From NCBI GenBank assembly GCA_036652815.1, contig JAVVVE010000006.1, positions 11,405 to 75,404 on the forward strand: a stretch of 64,000 nt of DNA, read 5' to 3'. Below are positions 1 to 39,511 of this stretch, in pieces. The DNA comes from Lachnospiraceae bacterium (GTDB lineage Bacteria; Bacillota; Clostridia; Lachnospirales; Lachnospiraceae). Both the position numbers and the translations under genes were made by a program. Position 1 is the first letter of the stretch, and each line of letters starts with the position of its first letter. Below the pieces are notes generated by a model. The model saw nothing but the letters and a program-made list of their open reading frames with translations. It made no database searches and was not told the DNA's origin.

Positions 1-550
1 CCTCTGAATTAGGAGTTTCTATAATAATTTTCCCTCCCTCATATAAATGTTCGCTCATGGTTTTTAAATATATTAGTGGATTCTCCAAATGCTCTATAAC
101 ATGAAAACAAGTTATGATATCATATTTTTCTTTACAATCATCAAGGCTCTTATAAACCTTAATCCCTTCAGCATTAATAATCTTTCTTGCCTCATCTTCA
201 ATTTCAACACCTGATACACTATGTGCCACTGACATAATACCTCTTAGGAATCCAGCATTGCCGCATCCAAAATCCAAAATTTTCTTTTCCTTACATGTCT
301 TTTCTAAAAGTGCCACACGTCTATCATCGTCTTCTTTAGTAATAGCTACCCAATCTTCAAAGCTTTCCTCTTCTTCGTTATCATGCATATGTGAATTTTC
401 ATAAAATTCATCTGATATTTGTTCAAAGGAGGATAAAAATACAAGACCACATTTTTTACATTTCAGCACATTAATATTGCTGTTATCTCTTGTACCACAA
501 TGTATTACTTCAATATCTTTATTTCCACACAAACTACATACAGCATTCAT
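1..550 (-). CDS. Class I SAM-dependent methyltransferase with N-terminal CxxC...CxxC zinc ribbon (partial; C-terminus runs off the left edge)
   Basis: Absent from the ORF track because it is truncated. Hand translation of the minus strand from the ATG at 548-550 gives MNAVCSLCGNKDIEVIHCGTRDNSNINVLKCKKCGLVFL...KKILDFGCGNAGFLRG...DIITCFHVIEHLENP. This shows two CxxC pairs followed by the DxGCG SAM motif I, and the frame is open to position 1. Confidence 0.75.
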   Translation of the reverse strand, partial: MNAVCSLCGNKDIEVIHCGTRDNSNINVLKCKKCGLVFLSSFEQISDEFYENSHMHDNEEEESFEDWVAITKEDDDRRVALLEKTCKEKKILDFGCGNAGFLRGIMSVAHSVSGVEIEDEARKIINAEGIKVYKSLDDCKEKYDIITCFHVIEHLENPLIYLKTMSEHLYEGGKIIIETPNSE

Positions 551-572
551 TTTTTATTCTCCTATGTTTAAT

Positions 573-1349
573 TTAATATCCTTTTTTTTGACCACCGTCT
601 ACTACAACTGTATTTCCAGTCATAAAAGAAGCTCTTTCTGAGGCTAGAAATACGATCATATCTGCAATTTCTTCCGGCTTTCCAAAACGTTTCATCGGAA
701 CATTCTGTTCAATATAACTCTTTGTGCCAACTTCATCCGCCAAGAGAAGTTCTTCCCACCTACCTGTTGGATAAATAATATTACCCGGGACTACTGCGTT
801 GACTCGAATACCTTGTTCTGCATAGTCTATCGCCATATATTTCGTTAAGGTCAAAATGGCATTCTTAGCTGCTGCGTAAGCATATGGTGCACTTATCTTC
901 TCACAAGCTGCTAATGATGAAAGTAACACAATGCTACTTCGTTGCTGTTCCATTAAAATATCCAGAAATATTTGAATCAGTTTTACCGCACTATACAGAT
1001 TTATATCAATCAGTCGTGCCCATTCCTCCATATCTAATCTATTCTCTGAGATAGGTTTTCCACTACCAAGATTAGGAATTAGAATATCTACTTTTCCAAA
1101 ACGTGATATGATTTGCTGTTTTGCTTGCTCAATATCACATGTTTTCGTCATATCACCGCATACTACAAATACATTATCTTGACCATAGCATGCACTTAAA
1201 TGAGTATGTGTTGCTATAAGTCTCTCTTGATTTCTTCCATTTATAATTACTTTCGCGCCTTCTGCTAAGAAGCTCTTTGCCGTAGCATATCCGATTCCCT
1301 TAGTTGACGCTGTAATAAAAACTATTTTATCTTGAATTTCCAGATTCAT
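573..1349 (-). CDS. Short-chain dehydrogenase/reductase (SDR) family oxidoreductase
   Basis: 258 aa. Has an N-terminal Rossmann motif (ITASTKGIGYA) and the catalytic YxxxK (YAAAK). Confidence 0.9.
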   Translation of the reverse strand: MNLEIQDKIVFITASTKGIGYATAKSFLAEGAKVIINGRNQERLIATHTHLSACYGQDNVFVVCGDMTKTCDIEQAKQQIISRFGKVDILIPNLGSGKPISENRLDMEEWARLIDINLYSAVKLIQIFLDILMEQQRSSIVLLSSLAACEKISAPYAYAAAKNAILTLTKYMAIDYAEQGIRVNAVVPGNIIYPTGRWEELLLADEVGTKSYIEQNVPMKRFGKPEEIADMIVFLASERASFMTGNTVVVDGGQKKGY

Positions 1350-1421
1350 ATAACTCCTTAAATATTACAAATTTATTTGGTTTTCTAACGATTATTTGAA
1401 TAAATTCTACATTTCTAGCAA

Positions 1422-2264
1422 TCATGATAAATATTGAAGTACAAATTGTTTCTGTTCTCTAATATTTTCTTCTTCCCGACCGTCTTCTCCTCGTGCTGCC
1501 TGTAAAATAATACTACCTTTATACTCTATTTGTTTTAAACTCGCAAAAACTTCCTTCATATCTGCGCTGCCTGTTCCTAAGGGTACCGATGTACCACCAT
1601 AAATTCGATCCTTAATATGTACATTGTAAACATATTGGTTGAGTGAAAGGAGTTCTTCTCTATGCCGATATCCCAATCCCGAACTGTTTCCACTATCATA
1701 ATTGGCTACTACATTTTTTCTATCAATTTTATCTAAAAAATTTTTAAAAACAGCCGGGGGGAAATCTGTTTCTAATCCCAGCATAATATGATATGTCTGT
1801 GCAATTATTGACATATGTTGAATAAATTCAATCATTTTTTTTTGTTCCAGTTCTGTTTTTACAGATGAATTATCTACTAAAGGAATTTCAATTAAATGTG
1901 CCTTGATTTGATGAGCTGCTTCTATAATCGTTGTGAGAATTTGAACATTTTCATCATATACCTTCTTTTCTTTCTCTGGCTTTTCTTTATAAAAAGGTCT
2001 TCTCATAAAATAGTCAAAGCAAACAGAATGAATCGTTACCCCAGTTTGTTTTACAACCTCCACAATACGTTTACGCATATTAGAAGTCCAAAGTGGATTT
2101 TCCTCATAGTTTTCCCAGTCAAAAATCCATTCTATCTCATCTAATCCTAAATTTTTTGCCAAATAAAACTCATTTTCCCAATTATCAAATGGAAAAAATT
2201 GAATCTCTCTACCTTTTCTTGGTGTTAATCGTCCCTGCATAATTCCTATACTATGCTGGTTCAT
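1422..2264 (-). CDS. Xylose-isomerase-like TIM-barrel protein (sugar phosphate isomerase/epimerase family)
   Basis: 280 aa. Overall resemblance to AP-endonuclease-2/xylose-isomerase-like TIM-barrel sugar isomerases, in a sugar-biosynthesis context. This is a family-level call only. Confidence 0.7.
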   Translation of the reverse strand: MNQHSIGIMQGRLTPRKGREIQFFPFDNWENEFYLAKNLGLDEIEWIFDWENYEENPLWTSNMRKRIVEVVKQTGVTIHSVCFDYFMRRPFYKEKPEKEKKVYDENVQILTTIIEAAHQIKAHLIEIPLVDNSSVKTELEQKKMIEFIQHMSIIAQTYHIMLGLETDFPPAVFKNFLDKIDRKNVVANYDSGNSSGLGYRHREELLSLNQYVYNVHIKDRIYGGTSVPLGTGSADMKEVFASLKQIEYKGSIILQAARGEDGREEENIREQKQFVLQYLS

Positions 2265-2318
2265 AGTTTTTCTCCTTTTATGTTCAATGTTCTGAAAATA
2301 TGATACTATGACTCGAAA

Positions 2319-2747
2319 TTATAATGTCTCCACCAATTCTATAAAATTTCCCTCAGGATCTTTACAAAAGCAAACTTTTGCATAACCGTTGGGAGAAACA
2401 AGTGGTTTTGAAATGAATTTAATTCCCATTTTTTTTAATCTGCTATACTCATGATCAATATTTAATACCGAAACTGCAATGTGATAACTTCCCTGTTCCC
2501 AAACAGAAGTTTCATCTTTTATTTTTGATTCCATATCGCATACTTTTAAAAGTTCAATCATCGTTCCATTATCCGCTTCCAATTTATATAGTTCGATTTT
2601 CGCATTATTTAGACCTAGAATAGTGGCAATATAATCACTGCTTTCTATTTCATGAATTTTCTCTTTCATTCCCAATACAGCACTGTAGAACTCTTTCATT
2701 AACTCTAAATCACTGACATATATTCCCGTATGTCTAATTGCAATCAT
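2319..2747 (-). CDS. VOC (glyoxalase/bleomycin-resistance/dioxygenase) family protein
   Basis: 142 aa. Has paired beta-alpha-beta-beta-beta modules with HTGIYVSDLE...FY and HIAVSV...DPEGNFIEL signatures typical of VOC proteins. Confidence 0.8.
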   Translation of the reverse strand: MIAIRHTGIYVSDLELMKEFYSAVLGMKEKIHEIESSDYIATILGLNNAKIELYKLEADNGTMIELLKVCDMESKIKDETSVWEQGSYHIAVSVLNIDHEYSRLKKMGIKFISKPLVSPNGYAKVCFCKDPEGNFIELVETL

Positions 2748-2762
2748 AGTTTTTCTCCAGTA

Positions 2763-4157
2763 TTAATTATTTTCTGTCACAATTTCCTGCATCGCTTCAA
2801 TGAGAACATCCATGCCTTCCGCTAATGCTTCCTCTGGGATTGTTAGTGGCGGTCCTACTTTAAGCGTTCCTGTCATCGTCCGAATAGACATGAGTCCTTT
2901 TTCAAAAGCTCGCTCTATTACCCTATCTACTAATTCAATATCCAGCTCTAATGTGCCCGGTTTTACAACAATTGCTGCAAAAGCCATACCCATACCATGG
3001 ATTGCCTGTATTCTGTCTGGAAATCTCGCTTGCATTTCTTGAAATTTTGAACGTAAAATATGTTCTTTACTTTTAGAGGCTTCTACCAAATGGTGCTCTT
3101 CAAGAAAATGCAAATTAGCCAATGCTGCTGCACAAGGTAAAGGACTTCCTCCATGTGTACTATTTAAAGATCCATCAACATCAATAATATCAGCCCGGCT
3201 CAATACGGCTGATAATGGTAACGATCCGCTAATTGCTTTACCACAACAAATAATATCTACGTCCACATCATAATATTCATATCCAAATAATTTACCGGTT
3301 CTCCCAAATCCCGCCTGTACTTCATCAGATACCAGCAGTGCATTGTGTTCAGTCAAAAACTTGCGTAAAGCCTTAATATACCCAATGGGATAAAAAAGTG
3401 CTGCCCACCCCTGGTATGGTTCAAAGATTGCTCCTGTAATGGTATCTAAGTCAACCCCCGATGCTTCTAACTGTGTAATATCTCTCTCGAAAAGTTTTCT
3501 GCCTGCCTCTTCATCATAAATCTGATCCATACTCTCAAATGCATTGGTTGGACAACACAGATGATAAATAGAAGGATCCATAGTTCCGATCCAGCTCTGA
3601 GAAGCCGGCTTCCCTGCCATTGTTTGTGCACCTAATGTTTTCCCATGAAAAGCTCCCTCAAATGCAATCATTCCTACTTTGTCTGGTCTTTGTTTTTTTC
3701 CATGCATACGGCAAAGTTTCAATGCACATTCTGTTGTTTCTGCACCAGTAGTTAACAGAAAAGCTTTATCCATAGGGCTAGGTGCCATTTTCACCAACTG
3801 TTCTGCTAATAGTGAACGAATTTCCAAAGAATAATAGTAGCTGTTAAGCATGGGCTTATCAAGCATTTCCTGCAATGCTTGAATGATAGCTTCATTGCCA
3901 TGACCAGTGTTTGTCACAAAGATGCCCGATGAAAAATCTATCCATATATTACCCCATTTATCAAATATCTGATAATCAACTGCTCTATCCCATACGGCAT
4001 AAAGTTGATTGTTCATAGACCAAGGTTCAAATCGAATAGAACGCTCTATAATTTCCAGACTTTCCGGAACCGGAAGTTTTGTCACTATTTTGCGATTTTC
4101 CGTTTCTACCAAAGGAACTTGATGTGGTACTTTGTTAAACATATATTCCGTTGTCAT
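2763..4157 (-). CDS. Class III PLP-dependent aminotransferase
   Basis: 464 aa. Contains the SDEVQAGFGRTGKLF motif and a downstream CCGKAISG lysine, typical of the class III (acetylornithine/GABA/GSA type) aminotransferases. Confidence 0.9.
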   Translation of the reverse strand: MTTEYMFNKVPHQVPLVETENRKIVTKLPVPESLEIIERSIRFEPWSMNNQLYAVWDRAVDYQIFDKWGNIWIDFSSGIFVTNTGHGNEAIIQALQEMLDKPMLNSYYYSLEIRSLLAEQLVKMAPSPMDKAFLLTTGAETTECALKLCRMHGKKQRPDKVGMIAFEGAFHGKTLGAQTMAGKPASQSWIGTMDPSIYHLCCPTNAFESMDQIYDEEAGRKLFERDITQLEASGVDLDTITGAIFEPYQGWAALFYPIGYIKALRKFLTEHNALLVSDEVQAGFGRTGKLFGYEYYDVDVDIICCGKAISGSLPLSAVLSRADIIDVDGSLNSTHGGSPLPCAAALANLHFLEEHHLVEASKSKEHILRSKFQEMQARFPDRIQAIHGMGMAFAAIVVKPGTLELDIELVDRVIERAFEKGLMSIRTMTGTLKVGPPLTIPEEALAEGMDVLIEAMQEIVTENN

Positions 4158-4193
4158 CGTTATATCCTTCTTTCTTACATTTTTTTACTTCTT

Positions 4194-4946
4194 TTAGTCT
4201 AACTTAGTTAATACATCATATATCCAAGAACCCTGTTGTTTAATTTTATATTCAAGATATGAAAAATCTTCTATGGTATCTACTTCATAGCAGCAGGGAG
4301 ATTCAAAAGCAATCATCCTATCTCCATGCAATAATTGTTGTTCTATAATAAACTGACTTTTTAGCACATCCACATATCCATCCGGAATATAGACGTTGGG
4401 AAAACCTTGTCTGCCTTCATTGGCTTCATCTAGCGTTATTTTCTCTGAAAGTGCTGTGAAATATTCATTTTCGTTCTTTAGGAACCACTTGTAAGGAGAC
4501 TCTGATGCTAAGTGTGCTGATCGTAAGGATGTAGCTTCCTCCCGTTTCATGATAGTTGAAATTGCCGTATCTACAATTTCTACTTCACGAAGCGGTGTGG
4601 TAGGGCGTAAATGAATCAAATATTCCGGCACACTTCCTTCGTTATCCATAAACCAATGTAATGCATGATTAATAAATTCTATATCACCCGAACAATCCTC
4701 TGCATACTTTTTAGGTCGTAAAAACGGAACCTCCGCTCCATATTTCCGTGCAATCTCAGCTATCTCTTCTGAGTCTGTAGAAACAATCACTCGATCTATC
4801 TGTTGCGAATACCTAGCCAATATAATCGAATATGCAATTAACGGATATCCTTGCAATAATTTAATATTTTTCTGTGGAACACCTTTTGATCCAACTCGTG
4901 CGGGAATAATTGCCGTTCGATTTCCCTGATCTATTTGAACTGTCAT
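4194..4946 (-). CDS. Acylneuraminate-type cytidylyltransferase (CMP-ulosonic acid synthetase family)
   Basis: 250 aa. N-terminal IIPARVGSKGVPQKNI motif characteristic of CMP-NeuAc/CMP-Pse/CMP-Leg synthetases. It overlaps the upstream gene by 4 nt (4943-4946). Confidence 0.85.
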   Translation of the reverse strand: MTVQIDQGNRTAIIPARVGSKGVPQKNIKLLQGYPLIAYSIILARYSQQIDRVIVSTDSEEIAEIARKYGAEVPFLRPKKYAEDCSGDIEFINHALHWFMDNEGSVPEYLIHLRPTTPLREVEIVDTAISTIMKREEATSLRSAHLASESPYKWFLKNENEYFTALSEKITLDEANEGRQGFPNVYIPDGYVDVLKSQFIIEQQLLHGDRMIAFESPCCYEVDTIEDFSYLEYKIKQQGSWIYDVLTKLD

Positions 4947-6007
4947 CTTTCATTCCTCTTATACATCTCGTGTTCTACACATTCACAAATAATATGCCCA
5001 ATCATAATATGCATCTCTTGTATTCTTGGTGTATTTAAGGATGGAACCGATATTACAATATCTGCTTGTTGTGTCATAACACAATTGATATCTCCACCAA
5101 TCATAGCAACTGTTTTCATTTTTTTATCTCGTGCCGCCTTGATTGCTTCTACAATATTTTTAGATGTTCCACTTGTCGAGATAGCAATAAGGACATCTTT
5201 TGCTTTTCCTTTTGCCTCTACTTGTCTTGCAAATACTCTATCAAATGCATAATCATTCCCTATTGCTGTCAAGCACGAGGTATTAACTGTTAATGCTTCT
5301 GCGTTCAATGCCGGTCTGTCAAAATAGAAACGGCTAACTAATTCTGTGGCAAGGTGTTGTGCATCTGCCGCACTACCTCCATTTCCACAGAAAAGCACTT
5401 GTCCGCCTTCTTGAAAAGTAGTATACATTAATTCGATGACTTTCTGTATCGCGTGTTGTAATGTAATATCCATTCTCACTCGGGCTATTAATTGATTATG
5501 TTCCATAAGCGAGTGCGTGAGCTTAGTATGGACTTGTGTGATTCCATCATTATATTTTTCTATCATGTGGATGCACTCTGCCAAGCAGCCATTTCCACCT
5601 TCTGTGGATAAAATAACATCTGCCACTGATTTAACATCTGCTATAGCATCTGCCGGGCATAAACTAAGTCCAACATATTGCATTGCTTCTATATCATATT
5701 TTCCATCTCCTATATAGCAGATAGATTCCGGTGTTATCTCTAATTGATGTGCTAACTTTTCAAGCATTTGCTTCTTAGTCTTGCATGCATCGTACCAGTA
5801 ATCCGGTTCAAGTCTCTCATGAATATATTCTGTGAATGTATTCTTTTCTCCGGTAATAATCCCAAACATTATTTGATGCTTTCTTATCTGCGCAATCGCA
5901 TCAAGATCTTTTAATGAAATAGTTTTTTGCTGTTCTTCTCCTTTTGCAATATATATCTTACCATCCGTAAGCACTCCATCAATATCAGCTACTATAAGCT
6001 TAATCAT
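4943..6007 (-). CDS. Fusion protein: KdsC-type HAD-IIIA ulosonate-phosphate phosphatase (N-terminal) and GmhA-type SIS sugar-phosphate isomerase (C-terminal)
   Basis: 354 aa. The N-terminal half has DIDGVLTDG...IITGEK...GDGKYD (KdsC/KDN-9-P phosphatase type HAD). The C-terminal half has FCGNGGSAADAQHLATEL...ISTSGTSKN, the canonical phosphoheptose isomerase/DiaA-type SIS signature. Confidence 0.8.
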   Translation of the reverse strand: MIKLIVADIDGVLTDGKIYIAKGEEQQKTISLKDLDAIAQIRKHQIMFGIITGEKNTFTEYIHERLEPDYWYDACKTKKQMLEKLAHQLEITPESICYIGDGKYDIEAMQYVGLSLCPADAIADVKSVADVILSTEGGNGCLAECIHMIEKYNDGITQVHTKLTHSLMEHNQLIARVRMDITLQHAIQKVIELMYTTFQEGGQVLFCGNGGSAADAQHLATELVSRFYFDRPALNAEALTVNTSCLTAIGNDYAFDRVFARQVEAKGKAKDVLIAISTSGTSKNIVEAIKAARDKKMKTVAMIGGDINCVMTQQADIVISVPSLNTPRIQEMHIMIGHIICECVEHEMYKRNER

Positions 6008-6013
6008 CGTGTT

Positions 6014-6841
6014 TTATCCTCTCAGTTTTGCTTTTACAGCTTTTTCTGCTTCCGATAATGTCTTCTCACCATTGCCAAGAATAGAGGAAACCGCTCTAAT
6101 ATCTTTTACCAAGCGCTGTAAATCATCTACCTCTAACGATGCTGCCTGATCCGAACCATACATAGTTCTATCTAGTGTGATATGACGTTCTATGGAGGTT
6201 GCTCCCAAGACTGTTGCCGCTACTGATACTAATCTTCCAGTTTCATGTCCACTATAACCTATATCACATTGATAACGTTCCCTTAGTTTTGCTATAAGCA
6301 TTAAGTTCGCATCTTCATTTTTCATAGGATATGTACTATTGCAATGCATTAATTCAAAAGAGCACTTGTATTTTTTAAAAATTGCCACAGCATTATCAAT
6401 TTCCTCATAATTACTCATTCCTGTTGCTATAAAAGTATGTTTACCTTCTTTTGCCACTTCTTCTAATAATTCTCTATTTGTTAACATAGCCGAGGCTATT
6501 TTATTATATGGCAAATCATATTGTTGTAAAAACTTCTGTGCCTCAATATCCCATGCAGACGCAAACCATACGATCTTTTTTTCTTTACAGTATGCATCAA
6601 TCATATCATATTCTGCTTTTCCAAATTCCAAACCTTCTTTTTGAGCACGTTGTGTTGTCCCCCATGGGCTTTCACGATATCCTTCTAAATATTCTTTTGT
6701 ATACACCTTATCAATCGTTCTTTTTTGAAATTTAACAGCATCGCAATCACAGATTACCGCCCAATCAATTAGTTGTTTGACTAATTCCATATCTCCATTA
6801 TGGTTAATTCCTACTTCCGCAATAATAAATGGTTTTTTCAT
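6014..6841 (-). CDS. NeuB-family PEP-condensing (ulosonic acid / ulosonate-phosphate) synthase lacking the C-terminal SAF domain
   Basis: 275 aa. Has the IIAEVGINHNGD, MHCNSTYP and GYSGHETG motifs of the NeuB TIM barrel. The protein ends right after the barrel, so there is no SAF/antifreeze-like domain. Confidence 0.85.
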   Translation of the reverse strand: MKKPFIIAEVGINHNGDMELVKQLIDWAVICDCDAVKFQKRTIDKVYTKEYLEGYRESPWGTTQRAQKEGLEFGKAEYDMIDAYCKEKKIVWFASAWDIEAQKFLQQYDLPYNKIASAMLTNRELLEEVAKEGKHTFIATGMSNYEEIDNAVAIFKKYKCSFELMHCNSTYPMKNEDANLMLIAKLRERYQCDIGYSGHETGRLVSVAATVLGATSIERHITLDRTMYGSDQAASLEVDDLQRLVKDIRAVSSILGNGEKTLSEAEKAVKAKLRG

Positions 6842-6856
6842 TCTATTCCCCTTTCT

Positions 6857-8086
6857 TTATTGACACCCTCTGTTTTCTTTTATCATAATATCAGCAACTT
6901 GTTCAAAAAAATCAATATCTTGTGAATCACGTCCTTTAATATAATCCATAATATATTTTTTTCGTATATCTTTTGATATTTTTCTAATATATTTCGTTGG
7001 ATTTAACGTTGGTTTGTCAATCATATATGGTTCGATTCCTAGATAGTCAGTGCACGCATACCTTTCATATTTGGTATTAATCAAATCGCTCCACCAAAAT
7101 AATAATCGTTTATTATATAAAACAACATAATCCAAAGCAGTAGAATAACTCATGATAACAAATTCGGCATGTTTAACCAATTCTACCGTATGAAAAAGCG
7201 AAAATTTTCTATTGCCAAATTCATTTCCCTCATAATTAGCACGAGGATGACCTGAAATAATAATCTCACAGTTAAATTGATTTTCCAACTGTTCAAACAG
7301 AATCAATAATTTTTCTTTTACACTTTGTTTGGTCTTTTGAGTATGGTCTTGCCCACCTAATAGTACTATGTCTGGATGAATCGTAAAATCTCCCGCATCT
7401 ATATAAAGTATATATTTTTTTCTGTTTTTTTCAGGCGGTTGCGAATTTGCTTTTAAATATTCATCATAATTCAAAGAATGTATGTATCTAAATCTACTGT
7501 TTTGTTGTAGCAATATTGGAATATGATTTTTATTAGTTCTGGTAGAGCAAAAATAATATTTGGGCGGATGAAGCATTGACTGTGCCAAAAATTTACCATC
7601 TGTATCAATCAACATGTAAATGTACTGTAAAAGAATTTCTTTAAAAACATGCATAACAGAAAATTTTGTAAGATTTGTTTTTTCAAAATTACAAACGTAT
7701 CTCACTTTTTCAATAAGATTTTTTGATAACACCCTTTCACTATAGAGAAGAGGGGGATTAATATGTAATTCATAATAAACACACTTTTCTTTTATTATTT
7801 TTTTCCTAATCCAATTATCTTTACTATACGGAATTAATAATAAAAATTGCTTATTCGCATTTTTTCCTATTTTATTTTCCAATTCACTTTTGGATTTAGG
7901 ATAAAAAACTTCGGTTCTTTTACAAAGTTCTTGTACCGGTGCGATTTTCTTTCTTGTAGCACTTAAATAAATTGTTGACCATATCTGCACATCAATCTTT
8001 TTTCTCTTGAAAATTTCCATCCCAAATCTTTGAAAATCTCTTTCTTCAAAATAATTTTGATATATAAAAATTATCTGATTTCTCAT
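6857..8086 (-). CDS. Hypothetical protein, possible GT-B-like (sialyl/ulosonyl-type) transferase
   Basis: 409-aa Lys/Asn/Ile-rich ORF with no clear family signature by eye. A C-terminal half with ILYIDAGDF ... IISGHPRA ... IMSYSTALDYV is reminiscent of the acidic and HP motifs of bacterial sialyltransferase-like and capsule transferases. It lies between the ulosonic-acid and heptose modules. The CDS is likely real; the function is tentative. Confidence 0.4.
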   Translation of the reverse strand: MRNQIIFIYQNYFEERDFQRFGMEIFKRKKIDVQIWSTIYLSATRKKIAPVQELCKRTEVFYPKSKSELENKIGKNANKQFLLLIPYSKDNWIRKKIIKEKCVYYELHINPPLLYSERVLSKNLIEKVRYVCNFEKTNLTKFSVMHVFKEILLQYIYMLIDTDGKFLAQSMLHPPKYYFCSTRTNKNHIPILLQQNSRFRYIHSLNYDEYLKANSQPPEKNRKKYILYIDAGDFTIHPDIVLLGGQDHTQKTKQSVKEKLLILFEQLENQFNCEIIISGHPRANYEGNEFGNRKFSLFHTVELVKHAEFVIMSYSTALDYVVLYNKRLLFWWSDLINTKYERYACTDYLGIEPYMIDKPTLNPTKYIRKISKDIRKKYIMDYIKGRDSQDIDFFEQVADIMIKENRGCQ

Positions 8087-8121
8087 TTTTTCACCTATCT
8101 TCGTTATTATTTCGATGAACT

Positions 8122-8691
8122 TTATTTTTCTGTAATAGCAAGTGCATTAACTAATAAATGCCATATAATCCCTTGCCATCCTTCTGCATGTGGTGTGATT
8201 CTTTCATCGTTTATTACCGGGATCAAAATACATGCATCTGCATTTTTACCCACATAACCACCATCACGTGACACAAGTCCAATAATTTTAGATCCTTTTT
8301 CTGTCGCATATTTTAATGCTTTTACAATATTTTGTGAAGTATGATCACTTCCTCCACCAACCGATAATATTAAGATAACATCCTGACTATTAAGTCTAGA
8401 TACTCTCAACCATTCTACAAAAGTAGTATCCCAGCCCTCATCATTTACTCTTGCTGTTAGCTCAGATATATTATCCGTAGGTGCATAAGCCTCAATTCCT
8501 GCTATTTTCCTAAAATCATTAACTGCATGAGACGCATTGGCTGCACTGCCTCCAACCCCCAGAATAAATAATCTGCCGTTATTTTTTTTAAGCGCAGCCA
8601 ATATTTCGATGCTTTTTTCGATTTTATCTTTTTCAATGGTTTTAGCTATCTGAATCGTCTCCAAAAGATATTGATTAATATAATTTTCCAT
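8122..8691 (-). CDS. SIS-domain sugar-phosphate isomerase (GmhA/LpcA-like)
   Basis: 189 aa. Contains FILGVGGSAANASHAVNDF ... LSVGGGS SIS motifs. It is adjacent to the heptose kinase and the nucleotidyltransferase/phosphatase genes. Confidence 0.7.
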   Translation of the reverse strand: MENYINQYLLETIQIAKTIEKDKIEKSIEILAALKKNNGRLFILGVGGSAANASHAVNDFRKIAGIEAYAPTDNISELTARVNDEGWDTTFVEWLRVSRLNSQDVILILSVGGGSDHTSQNIVKALKYATEKGSKIIGLVSRDGGYVGKNADACILIPVINDERITPHAEGWQGIIWHLLVNALAITEK

Positions 8692-8711
8692 ATGAATTTT
8701 CCCTTCTCATT

Positions 8712-10010
8712 TTATAAGCTTCTGGCAAAGTCTAATAAATTATTAACTATTCTATTTGGTCTGTAATCTTGCAATTGTTTGCACATATCACATTTTAATG
8801 TTCCTATCAATACAGTATTTAAACCTGCTGCTTTTCCAGCTAATATATCAGTATATGAATCTCCAACCATATAGGAGGACTCCCACTGAATATTATACCT
8901 CTCTTTTGCCATATATAATAGTCCCGGTTTTGGTTTTCGACAAGTACACTCTTTAATTAAAAAATGCTCTTTTGTATATGTGTTTTCCTTATCATAATGC
9001 GGGCACATATATACCTCATCTATTTTTATACCTGATTCTTCTATTTCACTCATCAGCTTTTTGTTAATATCATATAATGTAGCTAAGGATGTTTTCCCTT
9101 TAGCTGCAGCCGGCTGATTCGTTACTATAAAAATATAATAATCTAATCTTTTAATGATTTTCAATGCTTCAATGACTTGATCCATGATAACTACTTCTTC
9201 TGTTTTTAAAGGAGAGTCAAATTGCTCTATATCATCATTAAAAACGATTTCATTAATTACACCATCGCGATCCAAGAAAATGGCCGGATGACTTTCAAAA
9301 TAGCGTTTTTTTGCATATTTATCAAATTCAAGCAAAGAGCTTGGGGAACCTATTTCATAAAATCTCTTTATAACGATTTGATTTTCCAACTGTTTATCTA
9401 AAGATAGTTTTTTTTGAATCTCTGAAATATCAAATTTTATTCCTTGTGCATATGATAAAAATATTTCTTTTTCATAGATACCAATTCCGTAATCAATATA
9501 TTCCATTTCCTTTACAGGATTTTGCTTATCATATAAGATTATTTCACCATCTTGTAACCAAACATTGCTTGTATCAAGCTGATTATTGTTTTTAAATATT
9601 GTCATCAGTGCTCTTTTTTTACTTCTGGTATAGCGATACACTGTTTCTTTATAATCAATATCCATAAACGAATCTGCATATAGGAGCATAAATTTTTCTT
9701 CTAAATATGAAAATGCATTTCTGACTGCACCACCTGTTCCCAATAAATCTTTTCCATCATTACAATATTGAATTGTTACACCTAACTTTTCTCCCGTTTT
9801 ATAATATTCTTGTATTTTTTCACCTTGGTAGCCTAATAAAAACAAAAATTTTCTGAAACCGCTTTGATACATTAATTTCAATTGATAGTCAAAAAAAGGA
9901 ATTCCTTGAATCTTTACCATTGCTTTAGGTTCAGCCTCTGTATATTCTTGTAAACGGGTTCCTAGGCCTCCCATAAGCACCACAACTTGAAAATTTGCTA
10001 AATCCATCAT
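8712..10010 (-). CDS. Bifunctional sugar-1-phosphate nucleotidyltransferase (HddC-like) / D,D-heptose-1,7-bisphosphate phosphatase (GmhB-like)
   Basis: 432 aa. The N-terminus has LMGGLGTRL (GxGTRL nucleotidyltransferase). The C-terminus has FLDRDGVIN, VTNQP, a CPH...CTCRKPKPG zinc loop and GDSYTDILAG, the GmhB HAD signature. Confidence 0.8.
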   Translation of the reverse strand: MMDLANFQVVVLMGGLGTRLQEYTEAEPKAMVKIQGIPFFDYQLKLMYQSGFRKFLFLLGYQGEKIQEYYKTGEKLGVTIQYCNDGKDLLGTGGAVRNAFSYLEEKFMLLYADSFMDIDYKETVYRYTRSKKRALMTIFKNNNQLDTSNVWLQDGEIILYDKQNPVKEMEYIDYGIGIYEKEIFLSYAQGIKFDISEIQKKLSLDKQLENQIVIKRFYEIGSPSSLLEFDKYAKKRYFESHPAIFLDRDGVINEIVFNDDIEQFDSPLKTEEVVIMDQVIEALKIIKRLDYYIFIVTNQPAAAKGKTSLATLYDINKKLMSEIEESGIKIDEVYMCPHYDKENTYTKEHFLIKECTCRKPKPGLLYMAKERYNIQWESSYMVGDSYTDILAGKAAGLNTVLIGTLKCDMCKQLQDYRPNRIVNNLLDFARSL

Positions 10011-10981
10011 AAGGTTTTTGTTCCTTCCTTTTCAAATCTAAATCGTACCTCTAGCATTTTTGTTTTTTTCATAGCTGCTCGCAATTGCACCTTGTCTTTT
10101 GCATAGAACATAAGAAATCCGCCACCACCGGCTCCAATCATTTTTCCTCCCAATGCTCCGTTTTTAAGTGCAAATTCATACCATTCATTAATTAAAGAAT
10201 TACTCATTCCTGCAGAACGCTTTTTTTTATATTCCCAATGTGTATTCATGATATCTGCAAAATCATCTAAGTTTCCCTTTTCTAACGCTATTTTACTTTC
10301 AAAGCCTAACTCTTTAACATAATTCAAATTCTGAATCATCTTTTTATTATGATCCTTAGTTTTCCTATCTTGTTCATCTAAAATTATCCCTGCAGCTCTT
10401 GAAAATCCGGTAAAATACAATACTAAATTATCCTCCAGGTTATAATATGTCTCTTGTGTAATATTAAGAGGTTTGATATCCACATAACCATCTTTGGAAA
10501 ATGTCATGGTTTTAATGCCACCAAAAGATGCTATATATTGATCTTGTTTTCCGATGGGTTCCTGTAATCTATTCATTTCAATATTACAAGCCTCTTCTGC
10601 TAATTCTCTTTTATTAACAACACTTTCTTGCATTGTATGCAGGCCCAGCAATAATGCCGTTGTAAAACTACTAGACGAACCCAATCCAGTTCCAGATGGT
10701 ATATCTGCCATCGAACAAATCTCTATGCCCTTATCGCAAACATTTACCATGCTAAGAGCCTCTCTTATGATTGGATGCTTTATTTCTGCTATTTCTTTTA
10801 CTTTCTCAAATTGAGAATATTTCAAAATTATTTCTTTGGTAAATGTCTGATGAATTGTAATATATACATATCGATCAATGGCTGCAGAAATTAGAAATCC
10901 TCCATTTTCTTCATAATAGGAAGGTAGGTCTGTTCCTCCCCCTCCTAACGATATTCTAAGTGGGCTTCTAGTAATAATCAT
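10007..10981 (-). CDS. hddA: GHMP-family sugar kinase (D-glycero-alpha-D-manno-heptose-7-phosphate kinase-like)
   Basis: 324 aa. Has GHMP motif II (IPSGTGLGSSSSF) and a C-terminal GAGGGGF motif. It shows a 4-nt overlap with the downstream fusion gene, in a heptose pathway context. Confidence 0.75.
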   Translation of the reverse strand: MIITRSPLRISLGGGGTDLPSYYEENGGFLISAAIDRYVYITIHQTFTKEIILKYSQFEKVKEIAEIKHPIIREALSMVNVCDKGIEICSMADIPSGTGLGSSSSFTTALLLGLHTMQESVVNKRELAEEACNIEMNRLQEPIGKQDQYIASFGGIKTMTFSKDGYVDIKPLNITQETYYNLEDNLVLYFTGFSRAAGIILDEQDRKTKDHNKKMIQNLNYVKELGFESKIALEKGNLDDFADIMNTHWEYKKKRSAGMSNSLINEWYEFALKNGALGGKMIGAGGGGFLMFYAKDKVQLRAAMKKTKMLEVRFRFEKEGTKTL

Positions 10982-11017
10982 AATTCACTCTCCTCATATA
11001 ACACAGCTTAGTTCCTA

Positions 11018-11734
11018 TCACAAAATAGAGAATCCAATAGCTAAACTATCTCGTGCAAACATTTGTACAGTTTCCAATGAAAATTGTTCGAGATCCTTAC
11101 CTAATGATGGGATTTTTCGTAAAATATCATTTGTGACCGTAATGATATCTGCTCCGGAATTATTTGCCTGAATTATATTATACACCTCACGGCAGCTTGC
11201 CCACAGCACTTCTGTCCCCGGTTTCTTTTTACAAATTGTTACAACCTCTTGTACTATAGGCATAGCATCTATTCCTGTATCCATGATTCTGCCCGCAAAT
11301 ATAGAAAGAATGTTTTTTGTATTTGGTGCAAGCACTTCTATAATTTGTTTTGCTTGTTCAAAAGTAAAAATAGCCGTGATATTAAGTTGTAATCCTTGAT
11401 CAGATAATTTTCTTACCAATGGTACACTGGTTTCTCCTTTTGAATTAGTAATAGGTATCTTTATATAGACATTTGATCCTAATTTTGAAAGTACTTTCGC
11501 TTCTTTCTCCATAATGTCAAAGTCATCAGAAAAAACCTCAAAAGAAATAGGTAAATCTGTGATTTTATCCGTAATCTCTTTTGCAAATAATAAATATTCT
11601 TTTATTCCGGCTTTTTTCATAAGCGTTGGATTGGTTGTGAATCCTTTAATATATGGCTTTTGATACTCTTGCATCATTTCAGCTATTTCTGCTCCATCTG
11701 CAAATATTTTTATTTTTAATTCTTCTATTTTCAT
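11018..11734 (-). CDS. Transaldolase / fructose-6-phosphate aldolase family protein
   Basis: 238 aa. Has the GFTTNPTLM motif and a VYIKIP Schiff-base lysine region typical of short (TalC/FSA-type) transaldolases. Confidence 0.85.
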   Translation of the reverse strand: MKIEELKIKIFADGAEIAEMMQEYQKPYIKGFTTNPTLMKKAGIKEYLLFAKEITDKITDLPISFEVFSDDFDIMEKEAKVLSKLGSNVYIKIPITNSKGETSVPLVRKLSDQGLQLNITAIFTFEQAKQIIEVLAPNTKNILSIFAGRIMDTGIDAMPIVQEVVTICKKKPGTEVLWASCREVYNIIQANNSGADIITVTNDILRKIPSLGKDLEQFSLETVQMFARDSLAIGFSIL

Positions 11735-11743
11735 TTTTCCCCC

Positions 11744-12871
11744 CTAATGATTATAAAGACTCTTCTCTTCAAACGCAGCGTGTAGAAATTCAAATGATTT
11801 TTCTATTTCTTTACTCATTTTTTTCTTACATGCTTCATATTCAATTTCTTTTTTTATGTCTATTTCTTTTTCACTCTTTATTAGTCTATCTTCCAGTCCT
11901 GCCATTTCTGTGATTTGTTCTAATCTCAAATCACTTCTTCTATCTGTAAAAAACCATTTAAAACACCAAAACTGTTTTTCAAAAATAATAGAGAAAATCA
12001 CTCCATGAAAAGAACTTGTACATATGAATTCCGCATTTTTTACCAAATAGAGAAATTTTCCTACACCTATGTTGTTATATTGATCAACGTGACTTAGTTT
12101 TGCAGTAATTCGAGGTGCAATACATATTATTTTTTTAATTCCAGTTTCCTTTCTTATTTTTGTTACAATTTTTTGTGCAAGACTATTCATATCAGCCGGT
12201 ATATATAATAAAACATATTTTTCTTTCAGATTCATTGGAACAATCATTCTGTTCCACTCTTCTCTGGTTACCAGCAATGTGGGATCCACAACATTTTCGA
12301 CATGTAATCCGCTTAAGCTCTCAATCAATGGAACGGTCCCTTTTTCTCTGATGGAAATCTTATCAAAATGTTTCAAATATTTACCCATTTTTTTATATAT
12401 GTTTCTATGTTCGGAATATACTTTTCCCATTGGTTCACTGGCTGCATAAGCTATACGCTTTGCTTTTCTATTTTTTACTCCCAGTAACAAAATCGGATCA
12501 AACTCCATTGGATGCCATATTTGATCACTTCCGCAAAGTAAAACAGTTGCTTTTTGAGTTGACTTTTCAACTTGATTTCTTGTAAAAACCTGTTTAAAGT
12601 CTATCGATTCCTCTTTCATTATTTTATTTACAAATTTTCTTGTTTCCGAATACATATTGCGATTCTTAGAAAAAGGATTGAAATGTATCAAATAATATTT
12701 ACAAATATTCCAAAAATTTCTTTTCCTGTATGACAATAATGTGACTTGACCAACATTTAGTTCACTTATAATTTTTCCAATTGCACACCCTTGCAAGACT
12801 TGCCCATAATTTACAATATTATCTGCATCACACCATGTAATAATATTAATGATTTCATTTTTATTGTCCAT
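11744..12871 (-). CDS. Polysaccharide pyruvyl transferase family protein
   Basis: Has the CGSDQIWHP motif typical of PS_pyruv_trans proteins. The start is moved to the ATG at 12869-12871, which has an AAGGAG RBS 10 nt upstream. The ORF-track start at 12898 would overlap the upstream GT2 gene by 38 nt. Confidence 0.8.
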   Translation of the reverse strand: MDNKNEIINIITWCDADNIVNYGQVLQGCAIGKIISELNVGQVTLLSYRKRNFWNICKYYLIHFNPFSKNRNMYSETRKFVNKIMKEESIDFKQVFTRNQVEKSTQKATVLLCGSDQIWHPMEFDPILLLGVKNRKAKRIAYAASEPMGKVYSEHRNIYKKMGKYLKHFDKISIREKGTVPLIESLSGLHVENVVDPTLLVTREEWNRMIVPMNLKEKYVLLYIPADMNSLAQKIVTKIRKETGIKKIICIAPRITAKLSHVDQYNNIGVGKFLYLVKNAEFICTSSFHGVIFSIIFEKQFWCFKWFFTDRRSDLRLEQITEMAGLEDRLIKSEKEIDIKKEIEYEACKKKMSKEIEKSFEFLHAAFEEKSLYNH

Positions 12872-16857: not shown

Positions 16858-17293
16858 GTTCATGTACCTCCTTATACAATGGGTATTCAACCGCATGAGC
16901 AAATCTTGTTTTATCTTGATCGCCCGTATATGGACCTTGTTTCACTTCAAACATCTCCAGTTCTTCCAAAACCTCAAAACCGTGTCCCCCGGATGCTAAC
17001 ATAATTACATCTCCTGCACTTAAAATATAGCTTTCCAAATATACTCGTTCCTCATTAAAGAAATCCACCCTCAGTTTTCCGGATTTGATAAAAAGAACCT
17101 CCTGCGTATAGTGAACTTTGCGTTCCACAATATTATGTACATGTGGATCTATTATTTTCCCTGTTGGATGATGCATATAAGCCATTTGCTGTGAGTACTC
17201 ATTCGGCGTGCAAAAGTATACTCCATCTGTTTTAAAGTCATGTTCCATAATAATAGCTAGTACCACTTCCTTGTCCTTAATCAAAATCGGCAT
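16850..17293 (-). CDS. Cupin-fold protein (probable sugar isomerase/epimerase)
   Basis: 147 aa. Has a cupin His cluster (HHPTGKIIDPHVHN ... GGHGFE). It is translationally coupled to the DegT aminotransferase by overlapping stop and start. The specific activity cannot be called. Confidence 0.55.
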   Translation of the reverse strand: MPILIKDKEVVLAIIMEHDFKTDGVYFCTPNEYSQQMAYMHHPTGKIIDPHVHNIVERKVHYTQEVLFIKSGKLRVDFFNEERVYLESYILSAGDVIMLASGGHGFEVLEELEMFEVKQGPYTGDQDKTRFAHAVEYPLYKEVHEHA

Positions 17294-24844: not shown

Positions 24845-24856
24845 AACGAGCTCCTT

Positions 24857-39478: not shown

Positions 39479-39511
39479 ATGCTCACCTCTTCTATTTTTC
39501 TATTCTTCTAT

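Follow-up and report, generated by a model that had tools for sequence, protein, structure and literature searches.

A widespread Lachnospiraceae operon predicted to make a CMP-activated, sialic-acid-like sugar by way of a phosphorylated intermediate

Seven genes at positions 573 to 6841 of a 64,000-nucleotide stretch of a contig from a gut Lachnospiraceae bacterium (JAVVVE010000006.1; the whole stretch is hereafter called the window) raise the question of which sugar is made where a NeuB-family synthase sits beside a phosphatase and a cytidylyltransferase, and by which route. The original prediction had read these genes as a non-textbook ulosonic-acid module that works through a phosphorylated intermediate, and this logic stands, as a NeuB-family PEP synthase does lie beside a KdsC-type phosphatase together with a cytidylyltransferase; what was missed or overstated concerns the acceptor, the rarity of synthases lacking a SAF domain, the accessory genes and the extent of the module. 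Judged from its sequence, the module is a widespread operon for a CMP-activated sialic-acid-like sugar that would arise via a phosphorylated intermediate, and a literature search found no paper describing it.

Gene content, extent and setting of the module

All seven co-oriented genes were found, on the minus strand and with the domains ascribed to them, at Pfam E-values from 1e-70 to 5e-15 across the set. Intergenic gaps range from -4 to 72 nt, a GGAGG-like ribosome-binding site precedes each start, and the start of the cytidylyltransferase gene overlaps the stop of the phosphatase-isomerase fusion gene (4943..6007, two domains) by 4 nt. More than 8000 database relatives of the synthase and at least 120 full-length clusters of the fusion argue that these reading frames encode real proteins and are not due to chance. 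The genes thus hold, but not the completeness of the set, which is cut by the window edge: a SAM-dependent methyltransferase gene (1..550, minus strand), whose ATG at 550 is preceded by a GGAG ribosome-binding site, leaves the window at position 1 after 183 codons, so that the module extends past it. On a longer contig (L001) the complete methyltransferase gene encodes 287 aa, and beyond it lie genes for a PtmA-like SDR (277 aa), a CN hydrolase and a B12-radical-SAM protein.

Co-occurrence was counted across six independent Lachnospiraceae loci. The synthase and the fusion are neighbours in all six, with identities of 70-78% and 45-52%, respectively, which bears out the proposed pairing of synthase and phosphatase, and the TIM barrel and the PtmA-like SDR located just beyond the window accompany this core in five. 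A cytidylyltransferase homologue occurs in four loci, and none lies within 10 kb in the other two (L088 and L089). The class III aminotransferase, the VOC protein and a YafV-like omega-amidase (CN hydrolase) that co-occurs with the aminotransferase form an accessory set present in two of the six loci; the aminotransferase and VOC genes, originally counted as module members, are thus found here but are not conserved. In none of the 79 loci retrieved for an ordinary GmhA does a NeuB homologue adjoin GmhA; in two, a distant homologue lies some 10 kb off, at the locus edge.

Upstream of the module lies a gene set resembling that for GDP-D-glycero-D-manno-heptose (8122..11734, minus strand; NCBIfam matches), comprising a divergent SIS protein, an HddC-GmhB fusion, an HddA-like kinase and a staph-type transaldolase. 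The HddA (175.9 bits), GmhB (136.9) and HddC (85.8) matches all fall under their NCBIfam cut-offs; the transaldolase, which sits in the same operon-like array as the module, scores 352.5 bits against TIGR02134, above the NCBIfam cut-off of 281.95. Transaldolase is a source of sedoheptulose-7-P. The window also holds a Maf/MptE-like putative flagellin glycosyltransferase (28301-30202, minus strand; MptE-like, 4.6e-39), with a PseD-domain match of 120.6 bits that is under cut-off, and a flagellin (30625-31440, minus strand; Pfam Flagellin_N and Flagellin_C), the genes for FliD, FlgN, FlgK and FlgL lying upstream. The flagellin and Maf/MptE-like genes identify this region as a glycosylation island for flagellin; the module itself is linked to flagellin by location only, since a second SAF-less NeuB-family gene in the window adjoins Maf.

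The synthase, the fusion and the tailoring enzymes

The 275-aa synthase (NeuBs; 6014..6841, minus strand) consists, as foreseen, of a whole NeuB TIM barrel (Pfam NeuB, 1e-70, residues 24-260) with no SAF match by Pfam. Among PDB entries it is matched best by 6ncs, a Leptospira enzyme of 290 aa that likewise has no SAF domain (155 bits, 34% identity), and the AF2 model of the module synthase (pLDDT 84.5) aligns to 6ncs with Foldseek TM values of 0.87/0.84, whereas KdsA and DAHPS structures reach only 0.61-0.70. The residues E25, K53, Q55, K129, S132, Y186, S213, H215, E234, H236 and D247 of N. meningitidis NeuB, which cover the metal and PEP/aldose sites, are all kept, and E134 and S154 are replaced by Met and Ala, respectively. 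In NeuB, Glu134 is a proposed catalytic residue and the SAF cap shuts the sugar site at its distal end; the chain of the module synthase stops ahead of the NeuB positions F288/R314. The 120 nearest relatives all measure 270-282 aa, which indicates that the short chain is a conserved family trait and not damage. The lack of SAF is nevertheless less exceptional than the original prediction implied: about 30% of NulO synthases have no such domain (PMC8208679), and for one SAF-less homologue a crystal structure, 6ncs, is available.

The N-terminal half of the fusion (aa 1-152; 5552..6007, minus strand), classed through NCBIfam as a KdsC-type (C0 HAD) phosphatase, is a proposed ulosonate-phosphate phosphatase that scores 103.8 against the KdsC subfamily model (cut-off 106.95) and retains the DxD nucleophile motif in 46 of 49 fusion representatives, the family comprising some 49 clusters at 50% identity. 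The C-terminal half (aa 160-354; 4943..5530 with the stop, minus strand) does have the SIS fold that had been assigned to it, but the generic label of SIS isomerase undersells a sequence-canonical GmhA with all Zn and catalytic residues. It scores 202.2 bits against TIGR00441 gmhA (NCBIfam cut-off 209.45) and 179 bits against B. pseudomallei GmhA (2xbl; about 52% identity), and it is 45-57% identical to ordinary GmhAs from many phyla. Fusion residues D215, H218, E222, Q330 and H338 correspond to D61, H64, E68, Q175 and H183 of the B. pseudomallei enzyme, whose Zn ligands have been described (PMC5705639); the GNGGS and STSGxS phosphate loops are retained as well, and the catalytic and phosphate-loop residues are conserved in at least 44 of the 49 representatives.

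The NeuA/PseF-like cytidylyltransferase (4194..4946, minus strand; Pfam CTP_transf_3, 3.8e-22), a putative CMP-ulosonate synthetase, scores 134.8 bits against PseF (NCBIfam cut-off 205.7) and 35-48 bits against KdsB models. The class III (omega-type) aminotransferase (2763..4157, minus strand; Pfam Aminotran_3, 6.6e-78) has GABA and putrescine aminotransferases as its closest structures and may, as an accessory enzyme, introduce an amino group at an aldehyde or keto position of the sugar; an orthologue of 78% identity holds the same position in locus L090, and a class IV aminotransferase occupies it in L003-L007. Adjoining the aminotransferase in L090 is a VOC orthologue (49% identity). The VOC/glyoxalase-fold protein of the window (2319..2747, minus strand; Pfam Glyoxalase, 5.3e-15), matched weakly by the NCBIfam models of glyoxalase I and methylmalonyl-CoA epimerase, is possibly an epimerase or isomerase acting beside a carbonyl. 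The xylose-isomerase-like TIM barrel (1422..2264, minus strand; Pfam AP_endonuc_2, 4.9e-20) is nearest to ketose-phosphate 3-epimerases, its best NCBIfam and PDB matches being the L-ribulose-5-P 3-epimerase UlaE; it keeps Glu, Asp and His at three aligned positions that we take to be UlaE metal ligands, the fourth being Gln in all five orthologues. Lastly, the classical SDR oxidoreductase (573..1349, minus strand; 258 aa; Pfam adh_short_C2, 1.7e-56), which reaches no NCBIfam equivalog cut-off and has orthologues of 50-52% identity in L003 and L090, is proposed to carry out a tailoring oxidation or reduction.

A candidate route and its competitors

Where the original prediction offered a generic list of candidate sugar phosphates as acceptors, the GmhA identity of the SIS domain points to sedoheptulose-7-P as substrate, to heptose-7-P as acceptor and to a C10 product. 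We tentatively read the module as a self-contained pathway that leads from sedoheptulose-7-P to a CMP-activated 3-deoxy-ulosonic acid of ten carbons by a Kdo-like four-step logic, a reading that we hold to be nearly as apt to be right as wrong. On this account, in which we infer every substrate, the order of the tailoring steps and the glycan acceptor, the GmhA domain, as the proposed sedoheptulose-7-P isomerase, would yield D-glycero-D-manno-heptose-7-P, a manno-configured aldose phosphate equivalent to Man-6-P plus one carbon; the SAF-less synthase would condense it with PEP to 3-deoxy-dec-2-ulosonate 10-phosphate, the C10 homologue of Kdn-9-P; the KdsC-type domain of the fusion would remove the phosphate; and the NeuA/PseF-like enzyme would make the CMP-sugar. 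Oxidation and epimerisation, and in this locus also amination and methylation, may follow through the TIM barrel, two or three SDRs, the aminotransferase with its VOC and omega-amidase partners and the methyltransferase, before the sugar would be transferred onto flagellin-linked glycans. The product, if this is true, would be an unusual ten-carbon acid; to our knowledge, no NeuB-family enzyme takes a heptose phosphate. Support for the reading comes from the canonical GmhA half, from the adjacency of synthase and fusion, also in five loci whose examined flanks hold no GDP-heptose genes, and from the neighbouring transaldolase; against it count the Met at the Glu134 position of the synthase, the scores of both fusion domains, which fall short of their NCBIfam cut-offs, and the two loci with no cytidylyltransferase within 10 kb.

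The main competitor is a nine-carbon Kdn pathway, unlikely in our estimation, in which the SIS domain would convert fructose-6-P into mannose-6-P, and Kdn-9-P, Kdn and CMP-Kdn would be formed in turn ahead of tailoring. The stereochemistry of GmhA is established, and its chemistry on fructose-6-P would give a manno product. The phosphatase domain, moreover, is nearest to the KDN-9-P phosphatase BT1713 (best PDB match, 3e81), with Glu54 (kept in 41 of 49 fusion representatives) and Arg65 (39 of 49) at the positions of Glu56 and Lys67, which we take to be marker residues of KDN-9-P phosphatases and which would suit a C9 substrate no less well than a C10 one. The characterised Kdn-9-P synthases are themselves NeuB-family enzymes that use Man-6-P (PMC6200933). 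Yet the SIS domain matches bona fide GmhAs at every catalytic and phosphate-binding residue examined, the phosphatase score of 107.7 bits lies far under the NCBIfam KDN-9-P phosphatase cut-off of 180, and a fused isomerase would be redundant where housekeeping enzymes already provide Man-6-P.

It is likewise improbable that the tailoring set (aminotransferase, VOC protein, TIM barrel, SDRs, methyltransferase) leaves the ulosonic acid backbone unmodified and instead produces a separate substituent or a further sugar of the same glycan, in which case the core product would be plain and non-aminated. Such a division would fit the restriction of the class III aminotransferase and VOC genes to two of six loci, the other aminotransferase fold at the same position in L003-L007, and the 78% identity of the aminotransferase between two loci whose core enzymes share only about 50-77%, a disparity that suggests a mobile sub-module; it sits poorly with the TIM barrel and PtmA-like SDR that accompany the core in five loci, and with a Leptospira NulO synthase that apparently carries such a TIM barrel as a fused domain (PMC3438082), which, if so, argues that the TIM barrel acts on the substrate or product of the synthase.

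Quite unlikely, in turn, is a role of the fusion in nucleotide-heptose supply, its phosphatase replacing GmhB while the synthase would use an unrelated, non-phosphorylated sugar from the tailoring enzymes. Although the GDP-heptose-type set lies directly upstream and a cytidylyltransferase is absent near the pair in two loci, the window already encodes a GmhB, in the HddC fusion, as well as another SIS protein, the phosphatase is of the KdsC and not the GmhB type, and the fusion adjoins the synthase in five loci whose examined flanks contain neither HddA nor HddC.

That the synthase is simply a truncated member of an ordinary Neu5Ac, pseudaminic or legionaminic acid pathway is scarcely credible, for although the synthase is named best by the NCBIfam models NeuB and PseI and the cytidylyltransferase by PseF, and a LegC-like DegT aminotransferase (15721-16902) lies 9 kb upstream, all these scores are far under the equivalog cut-offs (NeuB, 248.7 against 399.65; PseI, 193.7 against 340.25; LegC-like, 324 bits against 420), the short chain is common to all 120 nearest synthase relatives, and Pfam and NCBIfam searches found no NeuC, PseB/G/H or LegB/G/H in the module. 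The predicted absence of Pse and Leg equivalents therefore holds inside the module and is qualified by the below-cut-off LegC-like gene outside it.

Comparison with known systems

Our preferred reading, the C10 route from sedoheptulose-7-P, can be set beside published NeuB-family synthases that act on manno-configured sugar phosphates and are followed by a KdsC-type phosphatase, namely BT1714/BT1713 and the P. parvum Kdn-9-P synthetase (PMC6200933). With the Kdn systems of B. thetaiotaomicron (BT1714/BT1713) and Prymnesium parvum (Kdn-9-P and CMP-Kdn synthetases) the module shares NeuB-family PEP condensation, a CMP-synthetase and a KdsC-type C0 HAD phosphatase for the terminal phosphate, its own domain being nearest to BT1713; it differs in the fusion of this phosphatase to GmhA, which would imply heptose-7-P instead of Man-6-P, and in having a conserved TIM barrel attached, together with SDRs and further tailoring genes. 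The Kdo pathway runs from an SIS isomerase (KdsD/KpsF) through PEP condensation (KdsA) and a phosphatase (KdsC) to a cytidylyltransferase (KdsB). The order of chemistry and the phosphatase family are common to both, but the module has a GmhA-class isomerase where Kdo synthesis has a KdsD-class one, a NeuB-family synthase in place of the KdsA/DAHP-synthase family, and a NeuA/PseF-like cytidylyltransferase in place of KdsB.

Leptospira provides two further parallels: the L. borgpetersenii enzyme 6ncs, the closest solved structure to the module synthase, also lacks a SAF domain, and the NulO synthase of L. interrogans carries a C-terminal "endonuclease-like" domain (PMC3438082) that appears, from its published description, to be an AP_endonuc_2 TIM barrel like the one in the module, apparently fused to the synthase there and encoded by a separate gene here. 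An amination resembling that of Kdo8N in Shewanella, where the oxidase KdnB and the aminotransferase KdnA operate, is plausible by analogy, in that the terminal hydroxymethyl group of the finished ulosonic acid would be oxidised and then transaminated and the aminotransferase of the module resembles omega-transaminases for terminal aldehydes; the module would, however, use other enzyme families, an SDR and a class III aminotransferase, whereas KdnB is of the iron alcohol-dehydrogenase type and KdnA of the sugar-aminotransferase type. As for the Neu5Ac, pseudaminic and legionaminic acid pathways, the module has a phosphatase and a SAF-less synthase, misses all equivalog cut-offs and has no genes for a nucleotide-sugar dehydratase, an acetyltransferase or a hydrolysing epimerase, but it has in common with them NeuB-family PEP condensation, CMP activation and a location in an island for flagellin glycosylation that includes a Maf-type transferase.

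Gene content and genomic setting

All seven open reading frames that the original prediction had placed in this module were recovered on the minus strand by ORF calling and Pfam: an SDR (573-1349; adh_short_C2), a xylose-isomerase-like TIM barrel (1422-2264; AP_endonuc_2), a VOC protein (2319-2747; Glyoxalase/VOC), a class III aminotransferase (2763-4157; Aminotran_3), a cytidylyltransferase (4194-4946; CTP_transf_3), a fusion protein (4943-6007; HAD plus SIS_2) and a 275-aa synthase (6014-6841; NeuB, PF03102, over residues 24-260). Gaps between these genes range from -4 to 72 nt and a GGAGG-like ribosome-binding site precedes every start; a scan of positions 1-13500 for promoter and terminator consensus sequences gave match counts equal to the shuffled expectation and is hence uninformative. 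A methyltransferase gene starts at 550 and leaves the window at position 1, so that the module is cut by the window edge; past it, a longer contig with the same module encodes a 277-aa SDR, a CN hydrolase, a B12-binding radical SAM enzyme and a Wzy-like protein. A Lachnospiraceae MAG encodes proteins that match the synthase and the fusion at 100% identity.

The genes of the window all lie on the minus strand, with FlgK, FlgL, FlgN, FliD and flagellin (30625-31440) coming first, a Maf/MptE-like gene after them and then ~28 kb of sugar genes, an order that places the module at the distal end of a flagellin glycosylation island. G+C content is 29-37% in the distal 24 kb, as compared with 39-45% across the remaining window. 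It is by location that the module is linked to flagellin; directly downstream of the Maf-like gene, moreover, stands a second SAF-less NeuB-family gene (26812-28350, minus strand), whose 512-aa product carries a C-terminal cupin domain (a weak D-lyxose-isomerase-like match) in place of SAF, scores 141 bits for NeuB and 131 bits for PseI, well under the cut-offs, and may be a further case of a synthase joined to an isomerase.

Between the synthase and a set of heptose genes lies a 409-aa ORF (6857-8086, minus strand) with a G+C of 28%, the lowest among the 14 genes checked in the array. Its candidacy as a CMP-sugar transferase was dropped, as it has no Pfam or NCBIfam match and its single-sequence AF2 model is unusable (pLDDT 35); the five other loci of our comparison hold no relative of it, and its only match among 5.8 billion proteins was itself. 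The heptose genes (8122-11734, minus strand) form a GDP-D-glycero-D-manno-heptose-type set, namely an HddC nucleotidyltransferase-GmhB phosphatase fusion, an HddA-like GHMP kinase, an SIS protein and a staph-type transaldolase. This SIS protein is divergent, having Asp and Glu at two GmhA Zn-ligand positions, and together with the GmhA half of the module's fusion it gives the island two separate GmhA-like proteins.

A DegT-family aminotransferase (15721-16902, minus strand) is best matched by the LegC family at 324 bits against a cut-off of 420; no LegB, LegG or LegH partner was recognised for it, the sole dehydratase-like SDR (23780-24844) reaching 51 bits to LegB. The island also includes, at 23780-26805 (minus strand), genes for a TagF/TarF-like glycerol- or ribitol-phosphate transferase, an IspD/TarI-like cytidylyltransferase and an SDR, a group that hints at alditol-phosphate decoration of the glycan. 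An AAA_14/DUF4143 ATPase gene (22342-23640, minus strand), just inside a sharp G+C step (~36% to 42%) near 24000, may mark the boundary of a low-G+C segment that was acquired. Among the flagellar genes, 37547-41194 (minus strand) is occupied by tandem FlgK-like hook-associated genes (643 and 560 aa) and then a FlgL-like gene, in which the flagellin N-terminal domain alone is recognised.

The synthase and the phosphatase-GmhA fusion

Judged by its bit scores against equivalog cut-offs and by Foldseek ranks, the synthase belongs within the NeuB superfamily and outside both of its named families, for it attains 248.7 bits with the NeuB equivalog TIGR03569 (cut-off 399.65) and 193.7 bits with PseI TIGR03586 (cut-off 340.25). 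Alignment with N. meningitidis NeuB indicates that the TIM-barrel metal ligands and PEP-binding residues are retained, with E25, K53, Q55, K129, S132, Y186, S213, H215, E234, H236 and D247 kept and E134 and S154 replaced by Met and Ala, respectively. The predicted absence of a SAF domain holds, Pfam giving no SAF match and the AF2 model (pLDDT 84.5) being a single TIM barrel: the chain ends at the equivalent of NeuB residue ~291, lacking F288/R314 of the SAF domain. In NeuB this antifreeze-like domain contributes Arg314 to the sugar site of the partner subunit. Every one of the 120 nearest relatives is 270-282 aa long, thereby arguing that the short synthase is the native form, and as ~30% of 13,941 nonulosonic acid (NulO) synthase sequences are without SAF (PMC8208679), its absence by itself is not novel. 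With the synthase model as query, Foldseek ranked first 6ncs, a SAF-less Leptospira borgpetersenii enzyme (TM 0.87/0.84), then PseI and NeuB barrels, with KdsA/DAHP synthases far behind. An extended beta2-alpha2 loop (residues 41-75) and a C-terminal K-L-R-G are near-invariant in the synthases of the six loci compared, and one may speculate that they are candidate phosphate-binding parts.

The fusion of a KdsC-type HAD phosphatase with an SIS isomerase, likewise part of the prediction, contains both domains, and the second can be specified further: NCBIfam divides the protein into an N-terminal KdsC-family phosphatase and a C-terminal GmhA, an assignment of the SIS half that alignment supports. 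The phosphatase half possesses a C0 HAD core with a DxD motif (D8/D10); it scores 107.7 bits with the KDN-9-P phosphatase model NF058599 (cut-off 180) and, in a narrow miss, 103.8 bits with the KdsC subfamily model TIGR01670 (cut-off 106.95). Its Glu54 and Arg65 align with Glu56/Lys67 of BT1713, the B. thetaiotaomicron KDN-9-P phosphatase, which we take to be markers telling KDN-9-P from KDO-8-P phosphatases. BT1713 (PDB 3e81) is also the closest match of this half, and the two positions are the sites mutated in PDB 4hgq (E56A) and 4hgr (E56A/K67A). Across 49 fusion representatives the DxD motif is conserved in 46, Glu54 in 41 and Arg/Lys65 in 39.

The SIS half, scored as a domain within a larger protein, reaches 202.2 bits with the GmhA model TIGR00441 (cut-off 209.45), aligns over its full length with the solved B. 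pseudomallei GmhA (179 bits) and is 45-57% identical to ordinary GmhAs from Campylobacter, Sulfurospirillum, Megasphaera, Acidobacteriota and others. The Zn ligands His64, Glu68, Gln175 and His183 together with Asp61 (B. pseudomallei numbering) are fully conserved among GmhA orthologues (PMC5705639), and all are kept in the fusion as H218, E222, Q330, H338 and D215, as are the GNGGS and STSGxS loops (here STSGTS) with their phosphate-binding Ser/Thr; the catalytic residues of GmhA persist in 43-46 of the 49 representatives, and the Zn ligands, Asp61 and the Ser/Thr loop in at least 44. The SIS half hence matches GmhA at every residue checked, and on the simplest reading it would convert sedoheptulose-7-P to D-glycero-D-manno-heptose-7-P. 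That the fusion is no assembly artefact follows from its full-length occurrence in at least 120 clusters at 90% identity, both halves being covered in ~49 clusters at 50% identity. One homologue of 568 aa (P0126) has an extra methyltransferase domain.

Conservation across loci and the tailoring enzymes

We compared the window and its longer contig with five other Lachnospiraceae-type loci, six in all. The synthase and the fusion are adjacent in all six (70-78% and 45-52% identity, respectively) and accordingly constitute the invariant unit. The TIM barrel and the 277-aa SDR (63-69% identity for the latter) accompany them in five loci, the cytidylyltransferase in four (L088 and L089 have none within 10 kb), the 258-aa SDR in three and the methyltransferase in two. 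The class III aminotransferase and the VOC protein had been counted as members of the module; both are indeed present, but they are accessory, recurring along with the CN hydrolase only in L090 besides the window and its longer contig (2/6 loci). In the related loci L003-L007 a class IV aminotransferase (12599-13579), likely a non-orthologous replacement, occupies the class III enzyme's place. The examined flanks of the five other loci showed no GDP-heptose genes; the locus L089 immediately follows a flagellin gene.

As a negative control, a locus scan by back-translated fusion patterns taken from the GmhA half yielded ordinary GmhA in 79 of 80 loci and a fusion solely in L008; none of the 79 has a NeuB homologue adjoining GmhA, and two have a distant one ~10 kb off, at the locus edge. 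Single synthase clusters were found on >100 contigs, and the module is common in Lachnospiraceae metagenomes of gut and rumen type. Thiamine-diphosphate-dependent (acetolactate-synthase-like) enzymes occur near the synthase-fusion pair in L088 (11065-12831), L089 (15045-16784) and L090 (1501-3339), and radical SAM genes recur in most related loci; the window has neither. Directly upstream of the synthase, L003-L007 encode a 587-aa PF27859 'LIC12162' protein (7967-9730), named after a Leptospira interrogans gene, which, after 6ncs, is a second hint of a Leptospira connection.

The cytidylyltransferase passes the family-level CTP_transf_3 threshold and scores 134.8 bits with PseF TIGR03584 (cut-off 205.7). 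The TIM barrel is nearest to the L-ribulose-5-P 3-epimerase UlaE: it keeps three residues that align with what we take to be UlaE metal-ligand positions. At the fourth such position Gln is found family-wide. One L. interrogans NulO synthase carries a fused C-terminal 'endonuclease-like' domain (PMC3438082), which, as we read that description, is a domain of this fold; in that case the TIM barrel would act on the substrate or product of the synthase. The class III aminotransferase is similar to the omega-transaminases of GABA and putrescine. The accompanying CN hydrolase has PRK10438 as its best model, presumably a YafV-type omega-amidase hydrolysing 2-oxoglutaramate, and such an activity would fit a glutamine-driven, irreversible transamination. 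For the 277-aa SDR the best NCBIfam models are PRK09186 and PtmA, both under cut-off, i.e. a weak PtmA-like similarity. PtmF was considered as an SIS protein that would connect the module with the ptm genes of legionaminic acid, and was ruled out, being a 326-aa oxidoreductase (PMC4481668).

Predicted product and known systems

The conserved genes repeat the order of Kdo synthesis, namely SIS isomerase, PEP-condensing synthase, KdsC-family phosphatase and cytidylyltransferase, with steps one and three on one polypeptide beside the gene for the step-two enzyme. The module falls under the curated cut-offs for NeuB, PseI, PseF and KDN-9-P phosphatase, and by a small margin under the GmhA and KdsC ones. 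It is a genuine and conserved module, uncharacterised so far and of putative chemistry; all its substrates are inferred from sequence and gene order. We consider it quite likely that it specifies a non-canonical CMP-ulosonic acid route via a phosphorylated intermediate. In particular, the synthase would condense heptose-7-P from the GmhA half with PEP to give 3-deoxy-dec-2-ulosonate 10-phosphate, from which the phosphatase half would release the free C10 acid and the cytidylyltransferase would form the CMP ester. To this heptose-derived product we give a little less than an even chance.

Heptose-7-P is manno-configured, as are, to our knowledge, all known NeuB-family acceptors (ManNAc, ManNAc-6-P and Man-6-P), and one carbon longer, which counts for a C10 product. 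The use of Man-6-P as such an acceptor is documented (PMC6200933), and Kdn made from fructose-6-P or Man-6-P is the main rival; the KDN-9-P-phosphatase-like markers in the phosphatase half speak for it, but a dedicated isomerase would be needless for Man-6-P, which again counts for the heptose-derived C10 acid, and we regard Kdn as unlikely. The heptose route further gains from the genomic context, given that Lachnospiraceae, as far as we know, are without LPS and that in five loci the synthase is the sole conserved neighbour that could use a heptose phosphate. In this window the same gene array also holds an equivalog-level transaldolase (352.5 bits; cut-off 281.95) that makes sedoheptulose-7-P, which also favours the C10 product.

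As for tailoring, a coherent scheme, put forward as a weaker inference, is that the SDR would oxidise a hydroxyl, the TIM barrel or the VOC protein would epimerise beside the carbonyl, and transamination and methylation would follow, in parallel with the logic of Kdo8N. Taken as a whole, the proposal that gut Lachnospiraceae make a C10 3-deoxy-dec-2-ulosonic acid (in this case probably with amino and methyl groups added) from PEP and GmhA-derived heptose-7-P and attach it to flagellin glycans is a tentative one, on which we would bet somewhat short of evens.

Sialic-acid-like sugars of flagella and cell surfaces affect motility, phage attack and immune recognition, and the established bacterial routes known to us all yield C8 (Kdo) or C9 (Neu, Pse, Leg, Kdn) acids. 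If true, our proposal would extend ulosonic-acid chemistry to a heptose-derived C10 backbone by means of a simple, portable four-enzyme core, and would provide the SAF-less NulO synthases, a large branch so far uncharacterised, with a role open to testing. In Magnetospirillum, ulosonic acids linked to CMP and showing a C10 chain-length marker (m/z 311.10, against 297.09 for the Leg/Pse marker) are described with no structure assigned and, in the part of the preprint available, with no genes named (bioRxiv 10.64898/2026.04.20.719630). We read the difference of 14.02 as one extra CH2, for which C-methylation could be an alternative source; a B12-radical-SAM enzyme gene lies just past the window edge. 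The module is thus a candidate gene set for "higher-carbon ulosonic acids" seen by MS without genes attached, and the route, if true, would be the first assigned to such an acid, represented so far only by these unassigned markers. Should the product be Kdn, the GmhA-phosphatase fusion would still be a new way of feeding the Kdn pathway.

The literature covered, which lay mostly outside subscription journals, contains no paper that connects NulO synthases with GmhA or sedoheptulose and no description of this module, and within the same scope nothing relevant on PEP together with heptose-7-P, on deculosonic or C10 sugars, or on Lachnospiraceae flagellin glycans. From the Kdo pathway (KdsD-KdsA-KdsC-KdsB) the module differs in that its synthase is of the PF03102 NeuB family, not KdsA-type (DAHP-synthase-family), and in that its cytidylyltransferase, at just 35-48 bits with the KdsB models, is not of the KdsB type. 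Among characterised systems the Kdn pathway (the phosphatase BT1713 and synthase BT1714 of B. thetaiotaomicron; P. parvum) comes closest, and the nearest structure is that of the Leptospira protein, a putative synthase.
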